This document shows, piece by piece, positions 53,605-63,990 of a stretch of 64,000 nt of DNA. Location of the stretch: NCBI GenBank assembly GCA_947259215.1, contig CAMYLJ010000017.1, positions 67,878-131,877 on the forward strand. Direction: 5' to 3'. The translations under genes were made by a program, and so were the position numbers. A model generated the notes under the pieces. It was not told the DNA's origin. It made no database searches and was given only the letters and a program-made list of their open reading frames with translations. Origin of the DNA: an uncultured delta proteobacterium (GTDB lineage: Bacteria > Myxococcota_A > UBA9160 > JAFDET01). Positions within the stretch are counted from its first letter, which is position 1; the number at the start of each line of letters is the position of its first letter.

Positions 53605-54153
53605 ATGGGAGATTCCGTGGGCCCCCGCTCTGCGTTCGTCGGCCTCGCTCTGGCGGCCCTGGCTCTGGGGCTTGGATGCGCCACGGCCGCCAAGCCCGAC
53701 GGGATGGTGGCGACCCGGGTCGTTCCCGCGCAGGGCGCCGCCGAGACCGTCAGCATCCGCGTCTGCGGGGGGCGCGCCACCTTCCCCCTGGGCCGCTCGC
53801 AGATCTCGAACGACGGACTCTACGAGGCGGTGGCGCGCTCGCTAGCGGAGTCGGGCCTGCTGCGCCCGGTCTACGACGCCGTGAGCGACTACCACCTGGA
53901 CGTCTGCATCGCGTCCGTGGACCAGCCCCATTGGGCCTTCCCCATGACGGTGGAGCTGGTGACCGACTGGGCCCTCACGCCCAAGGACTGGAGCTCGCCG
54001 CTCTGGGAGGAGACCCTCCACGTGCGTCACAAGGAGCCCTTCGAGCGCGAGTTCTTCGGGATCAAGCGCCTGCGGCTGGCCACCGAGGGCGCGGCCCGGG
54101 AGACGATCGGCGCTGCGCTGGAGGAGATCGGCCGCCAGCTCGACGAGCGCTAG
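53605..54153 (+). CDS. Lipoprotein (182 aa), unknown function
   Basis: Lipobox LGLGC. GC3-rich, with no recognised family. Confidence 0.65.
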   Translation: MGDSVGPRSAFVGLALAALALGLGCATAAKPDGMVATRVVPAQGAAETVSIRVCGGRATFPLGRSQISNDGLYEAVARSLAESGLLRPVYDAVSDYHLDVCIASVDQPHWAFPMTVELVTDWALTPKDWSSPLWEETLHVRHKEPFEREFFGIKRLRLATEGAARETIGAALEEIGRQLDER

Positions 54154-55497: not shown

Positions 55498-56274
55498 ATG
55501 AGCCCCGAGACGCGCATCGCGATCCAGCTCGTATTCTGGTCGGCCGCCTTCTGGGTGGGCCTGGCTGGCTTCCATCGTCGCGCCGGCGCCCGCGCGCTTC
55601 CGCGCCAGGCCGCAGCCCTCGCGTTGGGAGCGCTGGCCTCCCATGCGGGCGGGCGCCTCCTGCAGCCCTGGACCGCGGCCGCCGGCCCGAGCGTGCTCTT
55701 CGTTCCGCTCGGCGTCCTGCTGCTGGCGCCCCTCCGCACGGGCGAGCGGCGCGCCTTCCTGCCGGCCGGCCTCGCTGCGTTGCCCCCCGCGCTGGCGGTG
55801 GCCCGGCTCGGATGTCTGGCGGGCGGCTGCTGCGGCGCACCCGTGGCGCCGGCCCTCGGCGCGAGCGCGCTGCTGGCGCTGAGTGCGCTCGTCGCGCGCT
55901 TGCCCGAGGCGTGCATTCCCCCGACGGTGCTGGCGGGTGTCGCCGCCGTGCGCGCCGCGTCCGAGCCCCTGCGGCCCGTCGCCGTCTCCGGTCCCGCGTC
56001 GCTTTCCCCGGCCGTGGTCGCCACGGCCTGGATCGTCGCCGCCGCCGCGCCCTGGGCGCGCGCGGGTGGTCCTCGCCCCGCCCGATCGAGGATTCGTCGT
56101 GAACGCAAGAAGCTGGAGGGCTGTAGAAGGTTCGATTCTGGGGATGGCGCTGGCCGCGCTGGTGGCCGGGACGTGTCAGCCGGCGCAGCCGCTGGCGCCG
56201 CTGGCGGGAGTCGTCGAATACCGCGCGCCGGGCCTGGTGCGGCTGCCGGGAGGCCTCTACGACGTGGCGGCTGA
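55498..56274 (+). CDS. Polytopic membrane protein, possibly Lgt-like (prolipoprotein diacylglyceryl transferase family)
   Basis: It has 5-6 hydrophobic helices and GC3-rich codons. The loop ARLGCLAGGCCGAP recalls the G-C-x-x-G-C-C-x-G loop of distant Lgt-like proteins. The last ~60 codons are Arg/Gly-rich and overlap the RHS start region. Confidence 0.45.
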   Translation: MSPETRIAIQLVFWSAAFWVGLAGFHRRAGARALPRQAAALALGALASHAGGRLLQPWTAAAGPSVLFVPLGVLLLAPLRTGERRAFLPAGLAALPPALAVARLGCLAGGCCGAPVAPALGASALLALSALVARLPEACIPPTVLAGVAAVRAASEPLRPVAVSGPASLSPAVVATAWIVAAAAPWARAGGPRPARSRIRRERKKLEGCRRFDSGDGAGRAGGRDVSAGAAAGAAGGSRRIPRAGPGAAAGRPLRRGG

Positions 56275-59200
56275 GAACCTGATCCTGCGGCGCACGGACC
56301 TGGCCATCGACACGCGCCTCGGCGGCTACCGCCTGGACGCCACCTGGAACGACGCCGACGGGGGCTGGCACTGGGCCTTCGAGATGCACTACGACGGTGC
56401 GCTCTTCGTGGACGATACCGGTGCGCGTCACGACCTGGCGGACCTCGCAGCGGGCGATGCGATCCCCGGCACCTGGTGGGTGCGGATCGACGCCGCGAGT
56501 CTCAAGACCAAGGGCGGCCTCGTGCACGAGTTCGACCCGGCCGGACGCCTGGCGGCGGTGCGCTGGGCCAGCGCCAGCTACCCGCGCGTGCGCTACGTCG
56601 GCGCCCTCGTCGCGGGGGCGACCCGCACCGTGGCGGTCGAGCAGTGCACGTCCGCCAGCGCCTGCGCGGCGATCTTCGACCTTGCGTACGACGGCGCCGG
56701 GCGGCTGGTGGCCGTCGACGACCGGGCCGGCCGGCGTGCCGAGTTCGCCTGGGACGCCGCGGGCCAGCTCGCGAGCGCGCGGGACGGGCTCGACGTCGCC
56801 CGGGGCTGGCCCGGGCAGCGCTACACCTACGCGGCCGGGAAGCTCGCCAGCGTCACGAACTCCGAGGGGGAGCGCATCGAGTACCTGCGGACGTCGGGTC
56901 AGCTCGTGGCGCGCCAGATCGGCGCGGGCGATCCCGAGCACCGGATCCGGCGCCTGCCCCCCGTCGGGCCCCTCCTGCACACGGAGGCCGTCGATCCCCT
57001 GGGCCAGCGCACCCTCTACCGCTTCGACCGCGAGCGGCGGATCCGGGAGGTGGAGCGCGAAGCGGTGGGCGAGCTCACGCGCTTCGTGTGGGCGGGCCGC
57101 CGGATCGCGGAATGGCATCGGCCCGATGGGACGATCGTGCTGCGCAGCTACCTCGGCGACGACGTGACGCTCGAGACGCGGCCCTCCGGCAACCAGCTCG
57201 TGTACCAGTACGCCCCGGACGCGGTGGACCGCGGCGCGCCGCTGCGGCGCCCGCTGGCGCGCCTCGACGACAGCCTGGGGCTGGTGGAGCGGCGCGCCTA
57301 CGATGCCAGCGGTCGCCTCGTGGAGGTCGCCAACGGCGCGGACGAGGTCACGCGCTTCAGCTACGCCGCCGACCAGAGCATCGCCACGCGAACCTCCCCA
57401 GCCGGCATCGTCACGAGCTTCTCCCAGGTGGGCGAGCACGGACACCCGACGCACATCAGCACAGACGGCAGCACCCGCGTGCGCGTCTACGACGCGGTCG
57501 GAAACCTGCTGGAGTTCGGCGACGGCGAGGTGGACCTGGGCGGGGTGACGGCCCGCAGCTACGACGAGGACCGCAACGTCATGGGACTGATGCTGGCCGG
57601 CCAGTGGTCCTTCGAGCAGCTGCCTGCCGAGAGCCTGCTGGTGGAGCACCGCAGCGACGGTCAGGTCGAGCGGATCCTGCGCCCGGGGGGTGCGGACGTG
57701 GAGCACGTTCGCGACGCGCTGGGTCGGATCGTCGAGAGCCGGGAGCGCAGCGACGGCGTCTGGCGCACGACCCGCTTCGAGCTCGACGCGCTGGGGCGTG
57801 TCAGCGCGGTCGAGAAGCCGAACGGCATGCGCGAAGAGCGCGATCTCGACGCGCTGGGGCGGCTGGTGGAGCGCCGCCTGGGCCGCGGCTCGCCGCTCCA
57901 GGTGGAGACGAGCGCTTATCTCACCTGGCAGGACGGGCGCGTGGTGCGCGTGGACCACGACGCCGATCCGGACCCCGAAGAGCTCTTCTACGACGCGGCG
58001 GGCCGCATCGCGACGGTGCAGTACCCCGACGGTGAGATCCTGAGCCTCGCCTGGGACGAGCGCAACCGGCTGGTGGCGGCGGTGCCCGCCGACCCGGCGA
58101 CCGGGTTCGCGCGCAGCCTGGGCTTCGGCTACGACGGAGCGGATCGAGAGGTGGCCGTCGTGGATGAGGGAACGCCCGTGGTGACGCGCAGCTACGCCGA
58201 CGGCCGGCTGGTGGAGACCCGCAGCGGCAACGGCGTGGTGCGGAGCTACGGCTACGACCCGGACAGCGGGGGCTATCGCAGCGCCGTGGCGGTCGACGCC
58301 GCGGGAAACGTCATCGAGACCAGCGACGTCGGTTCGGACTGCCCGCCCTTCTTCGGAATGGGCGGCTGCTACGAGATGCACACCGAGAGCTTCGGGGCGC
58401 TCGCGCAGCTGACGCACGAGGAGTACTACTTCGGGCCCGACGAGGTGTACCCGGTGGCGCCCCCGTCCCTCGCGGGTCAGCGCATCGCCGTCGACTACAG
58501 CGGCAACGTCTTCGACTACGACGCCAAGAGCAACGTGACGACAAGACTGCTCGGCGGGGCGCCCGCGACCTTCGTCTACGACCCGGAGGGCACGCGGCTC
58601 CTGCGGATCGAGGACGACAGCGGGGGCGTCGTGCACGACTACGTCTACGACGAGGCGGGCTACGTGGTGCGCCGGGACGGGGTCGATCTCGTCTGGGACG
58701 GCGGCGGCCGCATCGCGGCCCTCGGATCGATGGCGAGCTTCACGTGGGATGCGCTGGATCGCCCGCGGGTCTCGAGCGTGGCCGGCATCGCCGTGCATCG
58801 CCGCTTCGGGGGGATCCTGGAGACCGATGCGCTCGGCCTGGCCCGGGCGCTCGATCTCGGCGAGGTGCGCATCGATCTATCCAGCGGGACGCGGCGCTAC
58901 CGCCATCTGGACCCGCGCGGGAACGTGAAGCTCGAGACCGACGACGCGGGGCAGGTGGTCGCCCACGTCGGCTACTCGACCTACGGCGTGGAGCAGGAGT
59001 GGGGCCAGGTCCTGGAGGGACCGCGCTTCGCCCGCGGCCGCGAGGTCCTCGACGGGCTCGTGCTGCTGGGACAGCGCCTCTACGACCCCGACGCCGCGCG
59101 CTTCCTGGCGCCGGACCCGATCCCCCAGCTCGTGAACGCCCACGCCTACACCCTGGGCAACCCGCTCTGGTACTGGGACCCGACGGGCTTCGAGGGCACC

Positions 59201-59674
59201 CTGAACGGACTGACGGCGCAGCAGTGGGCAGCCTCGGCTGCCTTCACCAGCGCCTGGGCGGCGGCCAACCGGAACGTGCCCGTGGCCGTCGGCTTTGGCC
59301 TGCTCGCCGCGACGTTCGAGGTCATCGCGGCGGCCGGCGGATTTCCGTGGGAGGGAGACCGTCTGAGCTGGGGGGGCCAGCCGCCGGGCGAGGAGCCGCC
59401 GGCGGCGCCGGACCCGAGTCCGGAAGATCCCCCCCCTCCCGCGGTGTTGCAGTCCGAAGGCCCCTCGCCATTCAAGGCGTACGCCGGCCCTCCGCGCGCC
59501 GTCGGCTCCGCCGAGGCTCCGTCGTACTGCCACGGCACCCTGGGCGAGAGCGGAGTCGATCTCAACGCGAGGGTACTGGCCCCAGTGGTCGTCACGAACG
59601 CGTTGCTCGCGCTGGTTGCGCTGCTCGTCGGTCGGCAGGACCGAGGGCGCCGATGTCCGGACAGGAGGAGGTGA
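56099..59674 (+). CDS. RHS/YD-repeat protein with a signal/lipobox-like N-terminus and a membrane-helix C-terminal region
   Basis: Many YD repeats (YDGAGRLVAVDD, YDASGRLVEVAN, FYDAAGRIATVQYPDG, YVYDEAGYVVRRDG). The core ends RLYDPDAARFLAPDPI...WYWDPTGF (59177-59191). The start is GTG 56099 or ATG 56144 (MALAALVAGTC). Confidence 0.85.
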   Translation: MNARSWRAVEGSILGMALAALVAGTCQPAQPLAPLAGVVEYRAPGLVRLPGGLYDVAAENLILRRTDLAIDTRLGGYRLDATWNDADGGWHWAFEMHYDGALFVDDTGARHDLADLAAGDAIPGTWWVRIDAASLKTKGGLVHEFDPAGRLAAVRWASASYPRVRYVGALVAGATRTVAVEQCTSASACAAIFDLAYDGAGRLVAVDDRAGRRAEFAWDAAGQLASARDGLDVARGWPGQRYTYAAGKLASVTNSEGERIEYLRTSGQLVARQIGAGDPEHRIRRLPPVGPLLHTEAVDPLGQRTLYRFDRERRIREVEREAVGELTRFVWAGRRIAEWHRPDGTIVLRSYLGDDVTLETRPSGNQLVYQYAPDAVDRGAPLRRPLARLDDSLGLVERRAYDASGRLVEVANGADEVTRFSYAADQSIATRTSPAGIVTSFSQVGEHGHPTHISTDGSTRVRVYDAVGNLLEFGDGEVDLGGVTARSYDEDRNVMGLMLAGQWSFEQLPAESLLVEHRSDGQVERILRPGGADVEHVRDALGRIVESRERSDGVWRTTRFELDALGRVSAVEKPNGMREERDLDALGRLVERRLGRGSPLQVETSAYLTWQDGRVVRVDHDADPDPEELFYDAAGRIATVQYPDGEILSLAWDERNRLVAAVPADPATGFARSLGFGYDGADREVAVVDEGTPVVTRSYADGRLVETRSGNGVVRSYGYDPDSGGYRSAVAVDAAGNVIETSDVGSDCPPFFGMGGCYEMHTESFGALAQLTHEEYYFGPDEVYPVAPPSLAGQRIAVDYSGNVFDYDAKSNVTTRLLGGAPATFVYDPEGTRLLRIEDDSGGVVHDYVYDEAGYVVRRDGVDLVWDGGGRIAALGSMASFTWDALDRPRVSSVAGIAVHRRFGGILETDALGLARALDLGEVRIDLSSGTRRYRHLDPRGNVKLETDDAGQVVAHVGYSTYGVEQEWGQVLEGPRFARGREVLDGLVLLGQRLYDPDAARFLAPDPIPQLVNAHAYTLGNPLWYWDPTGFEGTLNGLTAQQWAASAAFTSAWAAANRNVPVAVGFGLLAATFEVIAAAGGFPWEGDRLSWGGQPPGEEPPAAPDPSPEDPPPPAVLQSEGPSPFKAYAGPPRAVGSAEAPSYCHGTLGESGVDLNARVLAPVVVTNALLALVALLVGRQDRGRRCPDRRR

Positions 59675-59677
59675 AGC

Positions 59678-59971
59678 ATGCGGGAGCCGGTCGAACCCGT
59701 CACGAGCGTGGAGAGCAGGTCGGAGCGTTGGGTCCTCGGCGCAGGTCGCCGTTCGCGCGGTCGCAGCGCGACGATCTCGATCGCGATCCTCGCCGCCGTG
59801 AGCGGACTCATGCTCGTCATCGCGGTCGTCCAGCGCGACGCGCTGTCGCTCGTGATGTCTGCCCTGTTCATGCTGATCGGCGTGCTCACCTTCGAACGTC
59901 GCGTGTTCGACCGCATCGTCCGCCGCCAGGCCGCGGAGATCGCCCACCTCCGGGGCGGGGGAGGTGACTGA
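59678..59971 (+). CDS. Small 2-TM membrane protein (97 aa) in the immunity-gene position
   Basis: ATG lies 3 nt after the RHS stop, behind AGGAGGAGG. TM helices are ISIAILAAVSGLMLVIAVV and LVMSALFMLIGVLTF. Confidence 0.7.
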   Translation: MREPVEPVTSVESRSERWVLGAGRRSRGRSATISIAILAAVSGLMLVIAVVQRDALSLVMSALFMLIGVLTFERRVFDRIVRRQAAEIAHLRGGGGD

Positions 59972-60560
59972 GCTCCAGCGGGCAACGCTGCTGCTGCTGG
60001 CGGTGCAGACGATCCTGGTCGCCGGCCGGCTGGCGGCCGACGCGTCGGGGATCTCGAGCGCCGTCGCGGCCGCGAGCGGCGCCGGGCTCCTCGCCGCGAC
60101 GCGCCGCCGGGGCCCGCGACTCACCGGGCCCGGTGGCGTGCGGGTGGCCGCCCTCGGGGTGGCGGCAGGGCTGGCGGGGTTCCCGGTCTGCGTCGCCGCG
60201 ATCGCAGCGGTGGGGCTTGGGCTCGGCCTGCGGCTCCCGGCTCCCGAGGCGCTGGCGCACCCCCCTCCGGCTGTCTGGCTGGCGGCCCTCGGGATCGCGC
60301 CCTTCCTGGAGGAGGCGCTATTCCGGGAGCGGCTCCTGCTGGCCCTGCGGGGCCCGCTCGGCCCCGGGTCCGCCGTCCTGATCCAGGGCGCGTGCTTCGC
60401 CGCCCTCCACGGGGGGCACGCCTGGAGCCTGCTCGGGACGTTCCTGGTGGGCCTGCTCCTCGGCGCTGTGGCGCTCGCCACGCGCTCGCTGGCCCTCTGC
60501 GCCGGCCTGCACGCAGGGCTCAACGCGGCCGCCTGGGCACTTCTCCAGCAGTTTCGCTGA
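59964..60560 (+). CDS. CPBP-family (CAAX/Rce1-like, Abi) glutamic intramembrane protease
   Basis: Motifs EEALFRE, FAALHGGH and HAGLNAA occur in the canonical order. The GTG start overlaps the previous ORF by 8 nt. Confidence 0.8.
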   Translation: MTELQRATLLLLAVQTILVAGRLAADASGISSAVAAASGAGLLAATRRRGPRLTGPGGVRVAALGVAAGLAGFPVCVAAIAAVGLGLGLRLPAPEALAHPPPAVWLAALGIAPFLEEALFRERLLLALRGPLGPGSAVLIQGACFAALHGGHAWSLLGTFLVGLLLGAVALATRSLALCAGLHAGLNAAAWALLQQFR

Positions 60561-60669
60561 GTTCGGGTTCTCAGAGTGGGTTCGTCGGTGGTTTTCCCGA
60601 CGCTTCGGTGACGGAAGGGGTTAGAATTGCTGTGCTTTCGAATCCCTGGGCCGCTGGAGGTTGCCGCTG

Positions 60670-63600
60670 ATGACGTCTCGATTCACTCGCCCCGCACTCT
60701 TCCTCATCCTGTTCGGCCTCCTCGGTCTCGGCGCGAATTGTGGGCCCAACGTGACGTGGGTCTTCCCCGTCACCGGGAGCGCGGTCACGACCTTCCGCTT
60801 CCAGGCCGAGCTGACCGTGGGCGACGCCGACCTCGACCCCGCCAGCGCCGAAGTGATCCTCAACGGCGTCGCCGTGCCCTTCACGCTGGCCGGCGGCTCG
60901 ATCCTGGTCTCGATCGACCCGGGCCCCCCGCTGCTCGAGCAGAACGAGCTCGTCGCCCGCGTGCCCTTCCAGACGAACGGCGCGATCACCGCGACCACCG
61001 TCTTCAGCTACGAGCCCCCGGGCAAAGCGCGCGCCTTCGAGATCAGCGACCCCGCGGATCTCCTGACCGGCCCGCTGGCCCACAACCGGATCGGGGACTA
61101 CCAGCTCACCAATGACGTGGCGCGCTTCGTCGTGCAGCGCGCCCTCGTGCGCGACCTGCACAGCGTGGGCCAATTCGGAGGCAACCTGATCGACGCCGAG
61201 CTGCGGGCGAACCCCGGCTCCGACAACTTCTTCGAGATGGCGCCGTCGGTCAACATCGAGACGGTCGTGAACCCCACCAGCATCACGATCCTGAACGACG
61301 GTGCGGACGGGACGGCGGCCATCGTCGAGGCCTGCGGCCCGGACGACCTGATCGACTACATCAACGCCTCGACCCAGGTGGCTCAGTTCGGGGTCACGCT
61401 GCCGGACGGCATCGACGACCAGGACTACGACGTCACCGGCTGCACCCAGTACGTGCTCGAGCCCCGGATGCCCGGCGAGCCCGGCAATCGGGTGTCCATC
61501 ACCACCACGATCACCAACCACGAGACGCAGTTCGTGGACCTGTTTCCGGGTGACTACCTGAACGGCATGGGAGAGCTCGAGCAGTACACGCGCCTCGATC
61601 CCACGAGCAGCATGTTCTTCGACGCCGGCATCGGCGAGCTGACGGCCATTCCCGGGCTGCGTTCCTTCAGCTACTTCGGCTTCGGTCAGGCCACGGGTGT
61701 CTCCTACGGCCGCATCGGGCTGCCGGTCCCCACGTCGCCCTTCGCGGACTCGAGCTTCAGCACCTCCGGCGTCTCCTTCGTGCTGACGGCCAACTCCGTC
61801 ACCAACGTGCTGCTTCCTGGAGATGATCCGCCGACCCTGTCCATCCCGCCTGGCGGGAGCGAGGGCTTCAGCAGGGTCTTCGTGGTGGGCGACGGCGACC
61901 TGGCCGACGTGGTGGAGGCCCAGCTCGACGTCTCCGGGACTCCCCAGGGCACCGTGTCGGGCTGCGTGTTCGTCGATCCCGCCAGTCCGACGCCGGCCCC
62001 CGGCGCCCGGGTGACGGTGGGCGAGCTCAACGCGGGCCAGATCGGAGAGGTCGTGTCCGGCTGGGTGGCCCGTTCCGACGGCTGCTTCTCCGGGAACGTG
62101 CCCGTCGGCACCTGGGGCCTGTCCGCGGCCCGCGACGGAACACCCTACGAGGGAGGAGCCACCACCCCGGTGGTCCACACCATCGTCGTCAGCGACGGCG
62201 GCAGCGTCGCCCAGGACGTGATCCTGGACGCCACGGGCGGCCTCCAGGTGGGCGTCACGGACGGCAGCGGCAGCCCGATCCCCGCCCGCGTCACGGTCGT
62301 GGGCTTCGACCCGAGCCCGGAGCCGGTCATCACCTTCAACTTCCTGGGCTTCTTCATCGACGACGGCGGCACCTTCAACGACATCACCAAGGATCCGCTG
62401 CCGTACGGCATCGCCGCGGCCAAGTACACCGGCGCGGACGGCTCCGTCGCCTTCGACCTCGAGCCCGGCGACTACCAGGTGCTGGTCTCCCGGGGTACGG
62501 AGTACTCGATCTACGAGCAGCTGGTGACGGTCGCGGCGAACACCGTCACCCCGGTGACTGCCCGCATCGCCCGGGTCCTCGACACGCCGGGCTTCGTCTC
62601 GTCGGACTTCCACGTCCACTCGATCAACAGCCCGGACTCCCGCATCAGCCTGCGGAACCGGGTCGAGGGGTTCGCGGGCGAGGGCGTGGAGAACTTCGTC
62701 TCCACGGACCACGACGCCCGCACGGATCCCGACGCGACGATCGAGGAGGAGGATCTGGTGGCCCATCTGGCCGGCACCATCGGCGAGGAGATCACCACCT
62801 TCGACACCGGTCACTACAACGGCTACCCGCTCGGGATCGAGCCGCTGCGTCCCTCCCGCGGCTCCACCGACTGGGGGCGGGCTGAGCTGCCGGGGCGGGA
62901 CTTCCCCTCCTACGGGGCGTACATCCGCACGCCGGCGGAGATCCACGCCGAGGTGCTGAACCAGCTCGACGAGGACGGGCTGCCGCTGAACACGTCGCCC
63001 GACGTCGTGGTCCAGATCAACCACATCGGCAGCCACTTCGTGCCCTTGAAGATCGACACCTCGCTCGAGCCGCCCCGCTCGTTCCTCGGCCCGGGCGAGC
63101 CGGAGGCGTTCCGGCTGGATCCCGCGGTGAGCAACTTCTTCCACCTGTTCCCGGCGCTCGAGCTGTGGAACGGCATGGACCGTGGCCACCAGGCCGAGTT
63201 CACGGACCAGCGGATCGGGATCTGGATGAACCTCCTGAACCAGGGCATGCCCAGCTCGTTCATCGCCGACACCGATACCCACACGTTCCTCAACCTGCGG
63301 CAAGCCGGCGCCCGCACCTGGACGGCCTCGCCGACGGATGCGCCCCGCGCGATCGATTCCGACGACGTCGGCGCTTCGGTGCTGGCGGGCCGCGCGACCG
63401 GAGGCCAGGGGATCTACCTGCAGGCGGCGCTGCGCGAGGCCGACGCGCCCGACAATCTCGCGGACCTCTCGTGGCAGGGCTCCACCACCCTCGTCACCGC
63501 CGGCGACGGCAACGTGGAGCTGGTGATCGACATCCAGGCGCCGCTGTGGGCGGAGTTCGACACCGTGGAGATCTACGCCAACGCCGCCACCCGCGTGGCG

Positions 63601-63990
63601 GGCACGAACGACGGGATCCCGGTGCAATTCAGCGCCGACCCGACGCAGACCCTGGTGGCGGGCAGCGACTTCAGCCTGCCGGCGCCCGTGGTGGTCGATC
63701 CGAGCGTGCCCGGCGCCGAGCGGCGCGAGCTGCAGCTCGTGGTGCCCTTCGCGCTCAGCCAGGACACCTGGTTCGTGGTGCTCGTGAAGGGCAGCGACGG
63801 GGTGTCGCAGCCCATGTTCCCCGTCTATGCCAGCGACCTCGACCCGGCGTCGAACCCGACCCTGGCCGACCTGCTGGACGGGAACCTGGGCCAGGGAGGC
63901 ACCATGGCCCTCGCTGCGACCAACGCCTTGTTTGCCGACGTCGACGGCAACCCGGGCTTCGACCCGCCGGGCGTGCAGCTCGCCCCCTGA
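60670..63990 (+). CDS. Large lipoprotein with a PHP/CehA-like metal-dependent phosphoesterase module
   Basis: Lipobox LGLGANC. DFHVHSINSPDS ... VSTDHD ... INHIG ... ADTDTH give the His/Asp metal-ligand pattern of PHP-type domains. Ig/CarboxypepD_reg-like stretches are present (GTVSGCVFVD..., GTWGLSAARDG). SD CTGGAGG, and a TAGAAT box at 60622-60627. Confidence 0.7.
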   Translation: MTSRFTRPALFLILFGLLGLGANCGPNVTWVFPVTGSAVTTFRFQAELTVGDADLDPASAEVILNGVAVPFTLAGGSILVSIDPGPPLLEQNELVARVPFQTNGAITATTVFSYEPPGKARAFEISDPADLLTGPLAHNRIGDYQLTNDVARFVVQRALVRDLHSVGQFGGNLIDAELRANPGSDNFFEMAPSVNIETVVNPTSITILNDGADGTAAIVEACGPDDLIDYINASTQVAQFGVTLPDGIDDQDYDVTGCTQYVLEPRMPGEPGNRVSITTTITNHETQFVDLFPGDYLNGMGELEQYTRLDPTSSMFFDAGIGELTAIPGLRSFSYFGFGQATGVSYGRIGLPVPTSPFADSSFSTSGVSFVLTANSVTNVLLPGDDPPTLSIPPGGSEGFSRVFVVGDGDLADVVEAQLDVSGTPQGTVSGCVFVDPASPTPAPGARVTVGELNAGQIGEVVSGWVARSDGCFSGNVPVGTWGLSAARDGTPYEGGATTPVVHTIVVSDGGSVAQDVILDATGGLQVGVTDGSGSPIPARVTVVGFDPSPEPVITFNFLGFFIDDGGTFNDITKDPLPYGIAAAKYTGADGSVAFDLEPGDYQVLVSRGTEYSIYEQLVTVAANTVTPVTARIARVLDTPGFVSSDFHVHSINSPDSRISLRNRVEGFAGEGVENFVSTDHDARTDPDATIEEEDLVAHLAGTIGEEITTFDTGHYNGYPLGIEPLRPSRGSTDWGRAELPGRDFPSYGAYIRTPAEIHAEVLNQLDEDGLPLNTSPDVVVQINHIGSHFVPLKIDTSLEPPRSFLGPGEPEAFRLDPAVSNFFHLFPALELWNGMDRGHQAEFTDQRIGIWMNLLNQGMPSSFIADTDTHTFLNLRQAGARTWTASPTDAPRAIDSDDVGASVLAGRATGGQGIYLQAALREADAPDNLADLSWQGSTTLVTAGDGNVELVIDIQAPLWAEFDTVEIYANAATRVAGTNDGIPVQFSADPTQTLVAGSDFSLPAPVVVDPSVPGAERRELQLVVPFALSQDTWFVVLVKGSDGVSQPMFPVYASDLDPASNPTLADLLDGNLGQGGTMALAATNALFADVDGNPGFDPPGVQLAP

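Follow-up and report, generated by a model that had tools for sequence, protein, structure and literature searches.

A putative Cys-type C-terminal sorting cassette around an RHS cocoon lipoprotein of uncultured Myxococcota

Introduction

In the MYXO-CTERM/MrtX and JDVT-CTERM/MrtJ systems of bacteria, a protein with an N-terminal signal peptide ends in a cysteine, a transmembrane (TM) helix and an Arg cluster, and a cognate CPBP glutamic intramembrane protease is dedicated to it, lipidation of the cysteine followed by cleavage being the proposed course of events. The CPBP protease MrtX cleaves MYXO-CTERM (PMC11980579; 10.1101/2023.06.07.544157); the enzyme that lipidates the MYXO-CTERM cysteine is unknown, and "an Lgt-like acyl-transferase" has been proposed for this step (Guo, Haft & Wall 2025, PMC11980579). 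In JDVT-CTERM/MrtJ the enzyme and its single substrate are encoded side by side, and this is the closest known kind of system to the locus examined here. That locus lies in a stretch of 64,000 nucleotides (nt), hereafter the window, from contig CAMYLJ010000017.1 of an uncultured delta proteobacterium (assembly GCA_947259215.1). On our best reading, it is a four-gene cassette consisting of an Lgt paralogue, an RHS lipoprotein, a 97-residue membrane protein and a CPBP protease, and it represents a reduced member of a cassette that is conserved in uncultured Myxococcota.

The resemblance to the MYXO-CTERM and JDVT-CTERM systems does not extend to every feature. In the family studied here the C-terminal cysteine is part of a C-[SA]-P motif (C-H-G in the window), the spacer between cysteine and helix is of about 15 residues, an Asn or Gln lies in the middle of the helix, and the signal stays below all curated cut-offs. 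Furthermore, the putative substrate here is an RHS cocoon whose cargo tail is predicted to be released by autoproteolysis, and an Lgt paralogue, joined in relatives by a rhomboid protease and a membrane protein that we call X, is co-encoded with it, whereas no such companions have been described for the known systems. GlyGly-CTERM/rhombosortase offers another parallel, in that some relatives of the window locus have a rhomboid gene directly after a substrate gene with a three-part C-terminal signal; however, there is no Gly-Gly motif here, the window is without a rhomboid gene, and where the rhomboid does occur it usually accompanies the CPBP protease.

A different set of precedents comes from RHS toxins. 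Tse5 (RhsP1) of Pseudomonas aeruginosa, with its partner Tsi5 (PMC9637101, PMC10684867), likewise combines an RHS cocoon, a hydrophobic and non-enzymatic C-terminus of ~150 residues and an adjacent small two-TM inner-membrane protein. Tse5, however, is delivered by a type VI secretion system (T6SS), PAAR and VgrG, whereas the protein described here begins with a lipoprotein signal peptide, and the large open reading frames (ORFs) of the window include no T6SS genes. In addition, a PDB sequence search detected no similarity between Tse5-CT and the tail, and Tse5 has neither a terminal Cys-TM-Arg signal nor linked Lgt or CPBP genes. Tox-WTIP of the RHS/PVC polymorphic toxins (Zhang et al. 2012, PMC3482391) is also a short, hydrophobic, non-catalytic C-terminal domain carried by RHS proteins and is of a two-TM-helix pore type, but on direct reading the tail contains neither its RxxR nor its Wx[ST]IP motif, and the taxa in which it was described are proteobacteria. 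Hence, the combination of an RHS protein, a membrane-acting C-terminus and a two-TM immunity protein, which a preliminary description of this locus did not recognise as described, is already known from Tse5/Tsi5 (PMC9637101) and Tox-WTIP (PMC3482391). For a cassette of the kind presented here, no description was found in the literature searched.

Results

The RHS protein continues for 160 residues beyond its DPTGF motif (59177-59191), and the last ~50 residues of this tail, compared by sequence features, are laid out like the Cys-type C-terminal sorting signals that Haft described (10.1101/2023.06.07.544157): a cysteine, a TM helix and an Arg-rich end, preceded at the other end of the protein by an N-terminal signal peptide. 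The same ending is present in 99 of 121 homologues (82%), and the second TM helix and the Arg cluster of the window, which had been taken for part of a toxin, are the anchor of this Cys-TM-Arg signal. Its cysteine occupies a column that is at least 90% conserved, and 93 of the 99 tails have Ser-Pro or Ala-Pro directly after it. The spacer from cysteine to helix has a median length of 15 residues across the family (interquartile range 14-16), compared with 18 in the window, and an Asn or Gln is found in mid-helix in 37 of 38 anchor helices, the window having an Asn at 59591-59593.

Some RHS homologues have other C-terminal endings, as is expected of exchangeable sorting signals. In one of these, found at eight loci (L032, L033, L037, L042, L048, L051, L078, L081), the tail ends in C-G-L-L-G-I-E, a TM helix and Arg, so that the cysteine abuts the helix; the layout resembles that of MYXO-CTERM, yet none of the curated models matches, and the surroundings lack Lgt, CPBP and rhomboid genes. 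A MYXO-CTERM label, considered both for the homologue tails and for these CGLLGIE tails, was dropped because no NCBIfam CTERM model matched. Another ending (L015, L022, L024, L025; P0099, P0108, P0114 and others) consists of C-x-C and then a Gly-rich stretch finishing in GGGFGGF/W, with neither TM helix nor Arg cluster, and a gene of the same 188-residue membrane-protein family follows each.

Gene neighbourhoods were compared across 130 related loci, with 80 obtained by a search with an alignment of the RHS proteins and 48 obtained independently with an alignment of the Lgt paralogue. Of the 45 RHS genes with a Cys..TM..Arg ending, 33 have at least one gene for an Lgt-like protein, a CPBP protease, a rhomboid or X at a distance of no more than 4.5 kb, versus 2 of the 35 others (Fisher p=5e-10, computed without phylogenetic correction), and both exceptions turned out to be Cys-type tails that the classifier had missed. 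The search seeded with the Lgt paralogue again recovered RHS and CPBP neighbours. Three gene orders recur, namely Lgt-RHS-mini-CPBP(-X), which is the window type, Lgt-CPBP-RHS-rhomboid and RHS-mini(s)-X-Lgt-CPBP, where "mini" stands for the small membrane protein. The association of the downstream genes with the RHS gene, for which the preliminary description had suggested a comparison of neighbourhoods, is genuine in relatives.

At four loci (L093, L096, L097, L121) housekeeping genes surround a CPBP-X-Lgt triad, and the flanks that were fetched contain no RHS gene. The enzyme module may thus be separable from the RHS substrate, or may serve other substrates; such an arrangement fits an enzyme module with a substrate better than it fits an immunity gene with a toxin.

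The CPBP protein of the window matches PF02517 (E=1.7e-16, 60.7 bits against a cut-off of 22.4) and has the motifs EEALFRE (60309-60329), FAALH (60396-60410) and HAGLN (60510-60524). The corresponding EExxxR, FxxxH and HxxxN motifs are invariant in 22 of 22 RHS-linked CPBP orthologues, which form a single orthologous family across RHS subfamilies whose hydrophobic modules differ. The position of the gene varies, as it may lie upstream (between the Lgt and RHS genes), downstream, or on the opposite strand (8 loci), and the upstream and opposite-strand locations do not fit an immunity gene. An immunity function for CPBP, as proposed at the outset, is not supported by these features, nor by the finding that the gene travels with those for the Lgt paralogue, the rhomboid and X and occurs only beside Cys..TM..Arg tails; by sequence and context, CPBP behaves as the predicted processing enzyme of the C-terminal signal. 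Apparent fusions of the 97-residue protein to CPBP in some genomes were discarded, since the N-terminal extensions proved to be out-of-frame high-GC sequence and separate small ORFs are present there.

Two further proteins accompany the cassette in relatives. The rhomboid neighbours belong to PF01694, and no fewer than 90% of the copies retain both catalytic residues, Ser and His. They are found only beside anchors of the Gln type (13 of 25), versus none of 12 anchors with Asn or with mixed Asn and Gln. This distribution of the mid-helix residue, Gln beside the rhomboid and Asn in the window type that has no rhomboid, suggests recognition within the membrane. Protein X is a polytopic membrane protein of ~300 residues with invariant His, Glu, Asn and Asp in the motifs GYGH, WHxxEND, LYH and YLFWSxLHxxQT, and it nearly always lies directly upstream of the Lgt paralogue (L003:13393-14316, L059:10253-11233, L019:12607-13587, L093:7015-7974 and about 45 other loci). 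It has no relative in Pfam, NCBIfam or PDB. X may be an additional enzyme of the pathway, and we regard it as a candidate for such a role; the more specific idea that it is an ICMT-like methyltransferase completing a CAAX-like pathway found no support in the same databases.

The gene upstream of the RHS gene, which had escaped the preliminary description, as had the cysteine before the last helix (59528-59530), encodes a probable paralogue of Lgt. Homology extends over about residues 1-200 and includes the motifs ARLGCLAGGCC (55801-55833) and VRAASEPLR (55948-55974), and the GC content at third codon positions is 0.88. The window copy is 38-41% identical to copies at the same position in related loci, 6 of 14 of the locus copies match PF01790, and the family profile matches E. 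coli Lgt (5azb, E=2e-5, residues 37-287), with the equivalents of R143, R239, E243 and R246 aligned. At the positions of N146 and E151 of the E. coli enzyme, the motif RLGCxxxGCC has Cys instead. In 19 of the RHS-seeded loci the paralogue is encoded upstream of the RHS gene or in its vicinity. The Lgt ORF enters the RHS gene by 176 nt in another frame, both in the window (56099-56274) and in an orthologous contig (L001:3922-4097), and the overlap in L003 is only 4 nt; an ancestral stop codon of the Lgt paralogue seems to have been lost in the lineage of the window.

It is informative to consider which cysteine this protein might act on, because the RHS protein has one at each end. The paralogue could serve the N-terminal lipobox, with CPBP and the rhomboid only degrading or recycling the stop-transfer helix and the C-terminal cysteine left unlipidated. 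The RHS protein does have a lipobox, albeit an atypical one in the window (AGTC, with Thr at -1), and the paralogue is usually encoded directly upstream of the RHS start and overlaps it. However, in many loci it is paired instead with X and CPBP, and the lipobox is found in RHS homologues of every tail class whereas the Lgt paralogue occurs only with Cys-TM-Arg tails. Because the lipobox occurs in every tail class, the paralogue tracks the C-terminal cysteine signal and not the lipobox. An exclusively N-terminal role would also leave the near-invariant cysteine of the tail unexplained, and we consider it very improbable.

The shell to which the tail is attached is a typical RHS cocoon. Its YD/RHS repeats match Pfam RHS_repeat PF05593 (E=1.7e-35) and TIGR01643 (76.4 bits, cut-off 15.8), and residues 959-1030 match Rhs_assc_core TIGR03696 (43.9 bits, NCBIfam cut-off 32.5). 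AlphaFold predicts a confident closed cocoon for the whole protein (predicted template modelling score 0.80; shell predicted local distance difference test score, pLDDT, >90), and the best Foldseek matches of this model are the Rhs cocoons 8qja, 7q97, 8uxt and 8cp6 (E 1e-44 to 1e-38), so that the shell is grouped with T6SS Rhs cocoons, including that of the pore-toxin carrier Tse5 (8cp6). In an alignment of 32 sequences, D991, D1012 and G1015 show little or no variation, and the conserved DPxG aspartyl-protease motif is predicted to sever the tail from the shell, probably by autoproteolysis. The RHS shell with its DPTGF motif and the lipobox-like N-terminus without a PAAR, VgrG or TcB domain, both put forward in the preliminary description, were recovered, the latter as a lipoprotein signal whose Cys at residue 26 falls on the L-x-G-C of the family. 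Homologues of similar length number 853, nearly all of them encoded in metagenome-assembled genomes of uncultured Myxococcota or "Deltaproteobacteria", and their shells align throughout.

The tail itself has no match in Pfam, NCBIfam or PDB, and no recognisable toxin domain was found in it with these databases. It contains exactly two hydrophobic segments, 59276-59332 (Kyte-Doolittle hydropathy 1.94) and 59573-59629 (2.6), and between them a Pro-rich stretch (59381-59446); its pLDDT is 20-30 except in the last helix. The view of the tail as non-enzymatic, with two hydrophobic helices, a Pro-rich linker and an Arg cluster, accordingly holds. Relative to the orthologue in L001, the first module is 87% identical and the linker ~45%, and the parts that flank the linker are 87-90% identical. 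The tails of the homologues share architecture and not sequence, as they have one to three Ala/Gly-rich hydrophobic segments followed by a low-complexity linker, and their first modules collapse into one Ala/Gly-rich cluster under BLAST clustering. A search with the tail only (59192-59671) in a word-indexed tool gave no match, and this was a false negative, because identical and 60-87% identical tails (P0001, P0002) are in the same database; null results of such tools for low-complexity or hydrophobic queries are not to be trusted.

In the initial proposal, the locus is a polymorphic-toxin cassette in which the whole 160-residue tail acts on membranes as a pore- or ionophore-type toxin and the 97-residue and CPBP/Abi proteins both confer immunity. 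In its favour are a hydrophobic tail without enzyme motifs that is unstructured in the model, the tight coupling of the genes, and the variable, at times tandem, small membrane proteins that follow the RHS gene family-wide; Tse5 with its two-TM Tsi5 (PMC9637101, PMC10684867) and Tox-WTIP (PMC3482391) are precedents. Polymorphism is not what the comparison of relatives reveals. Tails diverge in step with shells, and no C-terminal swapping is seen: unrelated tails were found in 0 of 80 pairs with shells at least 80% identical and in 1 of 245 pairs at 70-80%. Likewise, a search of 1.84 billion representative proteins finds the first tail module, which is 78 residues long, on no other scaffold and nowhere but in the corresponding place of this RHS family. 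The positive-inside rule, applied to a protein with one N-terminal hydrophobic segment and a terminal anchor, argues that the first segment of the tail does not span the membrane of the producer. CPBP, for its part, follows the Cys-TM-Arg end and not the hydrophobic module, is encoded upstream or on the opposite strand in some loci and travels with the Lgt paralogue, rhomboid and X, and in the Lgt-CPBP-RHS-rhomboid loci the RHS gene is not followed by a small membrane gene. Taken as a whole, the toxin proposal is quite unlikely; what stands of it is the RHS cocoon, the non-enzymatic hydrophobic tail and the linked genes, and what does not is the toxin role of the anchor, the immunity role of CPBP and the polymorphism.

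The place directly after the RHS gene deserves separate attention. It is occupied by a small membrane protein in nearly all subfamilies and in every tail class, even at loci that lack the enzymes, and these proteins belong to different families in different RHS subfamilies; in the Lgt-CPBP-RHS-rhomboid loci the rhomboid gene follows the RHS gene instead and the place is empty of a small membrane gene. The 97-residue protein of the window is modelled by AlphaFold as two long helices in a helical hairpin (pLDDT 70), is present at the same position in seven related loci (L001, L004, L006, L008, L016, L066, L132), and its family is found only after RHS genes whose tails have the GGFPWEGD module. 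Tandem small two-TM paralogues, four in L003 (9719-12208) and three in L019 (11600-12581), one of them degenerate, lie between the RHS gene and the enzymes, and these arrays are reminiscent of immunity-gene arrays. Since proteins of this position are present where the enzymes are absent, an immunity-like role for the 97-residue protein remains plausible, and by analogy with Tsi5 and Tse5 (PMC9637101) its partner may be the first hydrophobic module of the tail.

These same proteins bear on the possibility that no toxin is involved and that the RHS protein is a lipoprotein with a teneurin-like role in structure or adhesion, both of its termini serving to tether or sort it, with the tail as linker and anchor and the 97-residue protein as an assembly or regulatory factor for the enzymes. 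Their presence where the enzymes are absent means that they are not enzyme accessories, although the best-conserved part of the 97-residue protein is a C-terminal basic helix (FERRVFDRIVRRQ), which would be cytoplasmic, and not its TM helices. Vertical inheritance of the tail with the shell, the lack of a recognisable toxin domain and the fact that the described Cys-CTERM substrates are surface proteins (PMC11980579) all agree with a surface protein. An invariant aspartyl autoprotease motif for the release of cargo does not, and the hydrophobic module and GGFPWEGD are conserved beyond the needs of a linker. We therefore regard a purely structural protein as unlikely.

The features of the locus are collected in Table 1. 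All ORFs, motifs and hydrophobic segments noted previously, together with the tight coupling of the genes, were found again, so that the observation underlying the preliminary description is confirmed. The start of the RHS gene at GTG 56099 is backed by GAGGA 7 nt upstream and by the same start in an 86%-identical orthologue (P0002), whereas the NCBI gene call takes ATG 56144, which yields 1176 residues. The ORF for the 97-residue protein begins 3 nt past the RHS stop and is preceded by AGGAGGAGG, which doubles as the codons for the final Arg-Arg-Arg of the RHS protein and as the ribosome-binding site of the smaller ORF, and the latter overlaps the CPBP gene by 8 nt; both the short gap and the overlap had been reported before. 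The absence of T6SS or Tc genes was noted as well, and none, including PAAR and VgrG, is found among the ten largest other ORFs of the window, all of which are housekeeping genes.

The GC content of the window is ~72%. Two neighbouring ORFs may be mentioned. Downstream, 100 nt after the CPBP gene, starts a gene for a secreted protein of >1109 residues (60661-63990, + strand, continuing past the window end) with a CehA/McbA-type metallohydrolase region and CarboxypepD_reg-like domains, and relatives gave no sign of a connection between this gene and the cassette. Upstream, a 182-residue ORF (53605-54153, + strand) has a lipoprotein-like signal (…ALGLGCATA) and no family match; its counterpart in the orthologous contig L001 (1434-1982) has the same position, between GST and P450 genes.

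Table 1. Coordinates of the cassette genes and of the parts of the RHS protein (positions in the window)
Feature	Position	Strand	Basis or remark
Lgt-family paralogue	55498-56274	+	Family profile against E. coli Lgt; 3' end overlaps RHS start by 176 nt
RHS/YD cocoon lipoprotein, 1191 residues	56099-59674	+	GTG start; Pfam, NCBIfam, AlphaFold, Foldseek
Lipoprotein-type signal peptide ending VAGTC	56099-56176	+	Cys at residue 26 aligns with family lipobox L-x-G-C
Predicted RHS aspartyl autoproteolysis region, YDPDAARFLAPDP ... NPLWYWDPTGF	59081-59191	+	Conserved residues
Subfamily-specific tail module: amphipathic stretch, hydrophobic helix (59276-59332), invariant GGFPWEGD (59336-59359)	59192-59380	+	Conservation
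Pro/Glu-rich low-complexity disordered linker	59381-59521	+	pLDDT ~22; ~45% identity to orthologue
Three-part C-terminal signal: Cys 59528-59530 (in SYCHG), 18-residue spacer, TM helix (59573-59632), Arg cluster RQDRGRRCPDRRR (59633-59671)	59522-59671	+	Conservation
97-residue helical-hairpin membrane protein (MINI)	59678-59971	+	Directly after RHS gene
CPBP / Rce1-like glutamic intramembrane protease, 198 residues	59964-60560	+	PF02517

Discussion

The most probable explanation of this locus, which we favour with some reserve, is a dedicated Cys-CTERM sorting cassette, a variant of the myxosortase type in which the Lgt paralogue is the candidate lipidating enzyme. The architecture of the protein and its genes, the conservation of the C-terminal signal, the intact catalytic motifs and the dependence of gene linkage on tail type are direct observations, and from them we infer the following course of events. 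The RHS protein would be exported by Sec by means of its lipoprotein signal peptide, would probably be lipidated at its N-terminus, and the cocoon would fold in the periplasm. The C-terminal cysteine, spacer, TM helix and Arg cluster would act as a stop-transfer sorting signal that holds the tail in the inner membrane, where, by analogy with MYXO-CTERM and myxosortase, the cysteine may be lipidated by the Lgt paralogue. CPBP would then remove the TM/Arg anchor, with the rhomboid contributing in relatives, where X is added as well.

Autoproteolysis at DPxG would free a hydrophobic, proline-rich fragment of ~110 residues, possibly lipidated at its C-terminus. The 97-residue protein would stand outside the sorting machinery as the subfamily-specific partner of the first hydrophobic module, and would most likely protect the inner membrane of the producer in the way that Tsi5 does for Tse5.

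Several observations weigh against this sorting pathway. With respect to the signal, a spacer of ~15 residues is unlike those of the described Cys-CTERM signals; the window copy is atypical even for its own family, with C-H-G instead of C-[SA]-P and 18 residues in the spacer; and none of the curated CTERM models (MYXO-, JDVT-, Synerg- and CGP-CTERM) comes near its cut-off at E<=10. With respect to the enzymes, the CPBP protein is below the Mrt cut-offs (MrtJ 27.3 vs 75, MrtS 18.2 vs 130, Mrt_core sub-threshold), and an ABC_perm_CPBP model scores higher. CPBP/Abi proteins elsewhere serve as bacteriocin immunity proteins, and in that capacity they also need their conserved motifs. The Lgt paralogue of the window has no Pfam match of its own and no HPTxLYE loop, and it might act on the N-terminal lipobox instead. 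Neither X nor a rhomboid is present in the window, no enzyme is found near 12 of the 45 Cys-type loci, and the linkage statistic carries no phylogenetic correction. Furthermore, should the tail lie inside the cocoon, as other RHS cargo does, its end would be hard to place in the membrane, and a sorting signal on a cargo tail poses the problem of how encapsulation is to be squared with membrane anchoring.

These considerations have a practical side for the annotation of RHS loci, as not every TM helix after DPxG is a toxin and not every adjacent CPBP/Abi gene is an immunity gene. They are also of interest for Cys-type sorting signals in general. It is possible, and we put it forward tentatively, that the Lgt paralogue, perhaps together with protein X, is the missing enzyme that lipidates their cysteine. 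An Lgt paralogue, a CPBP protease and a single substrate encoded side by side make up a compact system in which the question of cysteine lipidation becomes testable by co-expression.

If the proposed pathway is correct, RHS cocoons of this family would mature by a "reverse lipoprotein" route in which an Lgt-like transferase acts first and a CPBP and/or rhomboid protease follows. To our knowledge, this would be the first RHS cocoon with a sorting signal on its cargo tail, and the cocoon, or the hydrophobic cargo peptide released from it, would carry a C-terminal lipid anchor.

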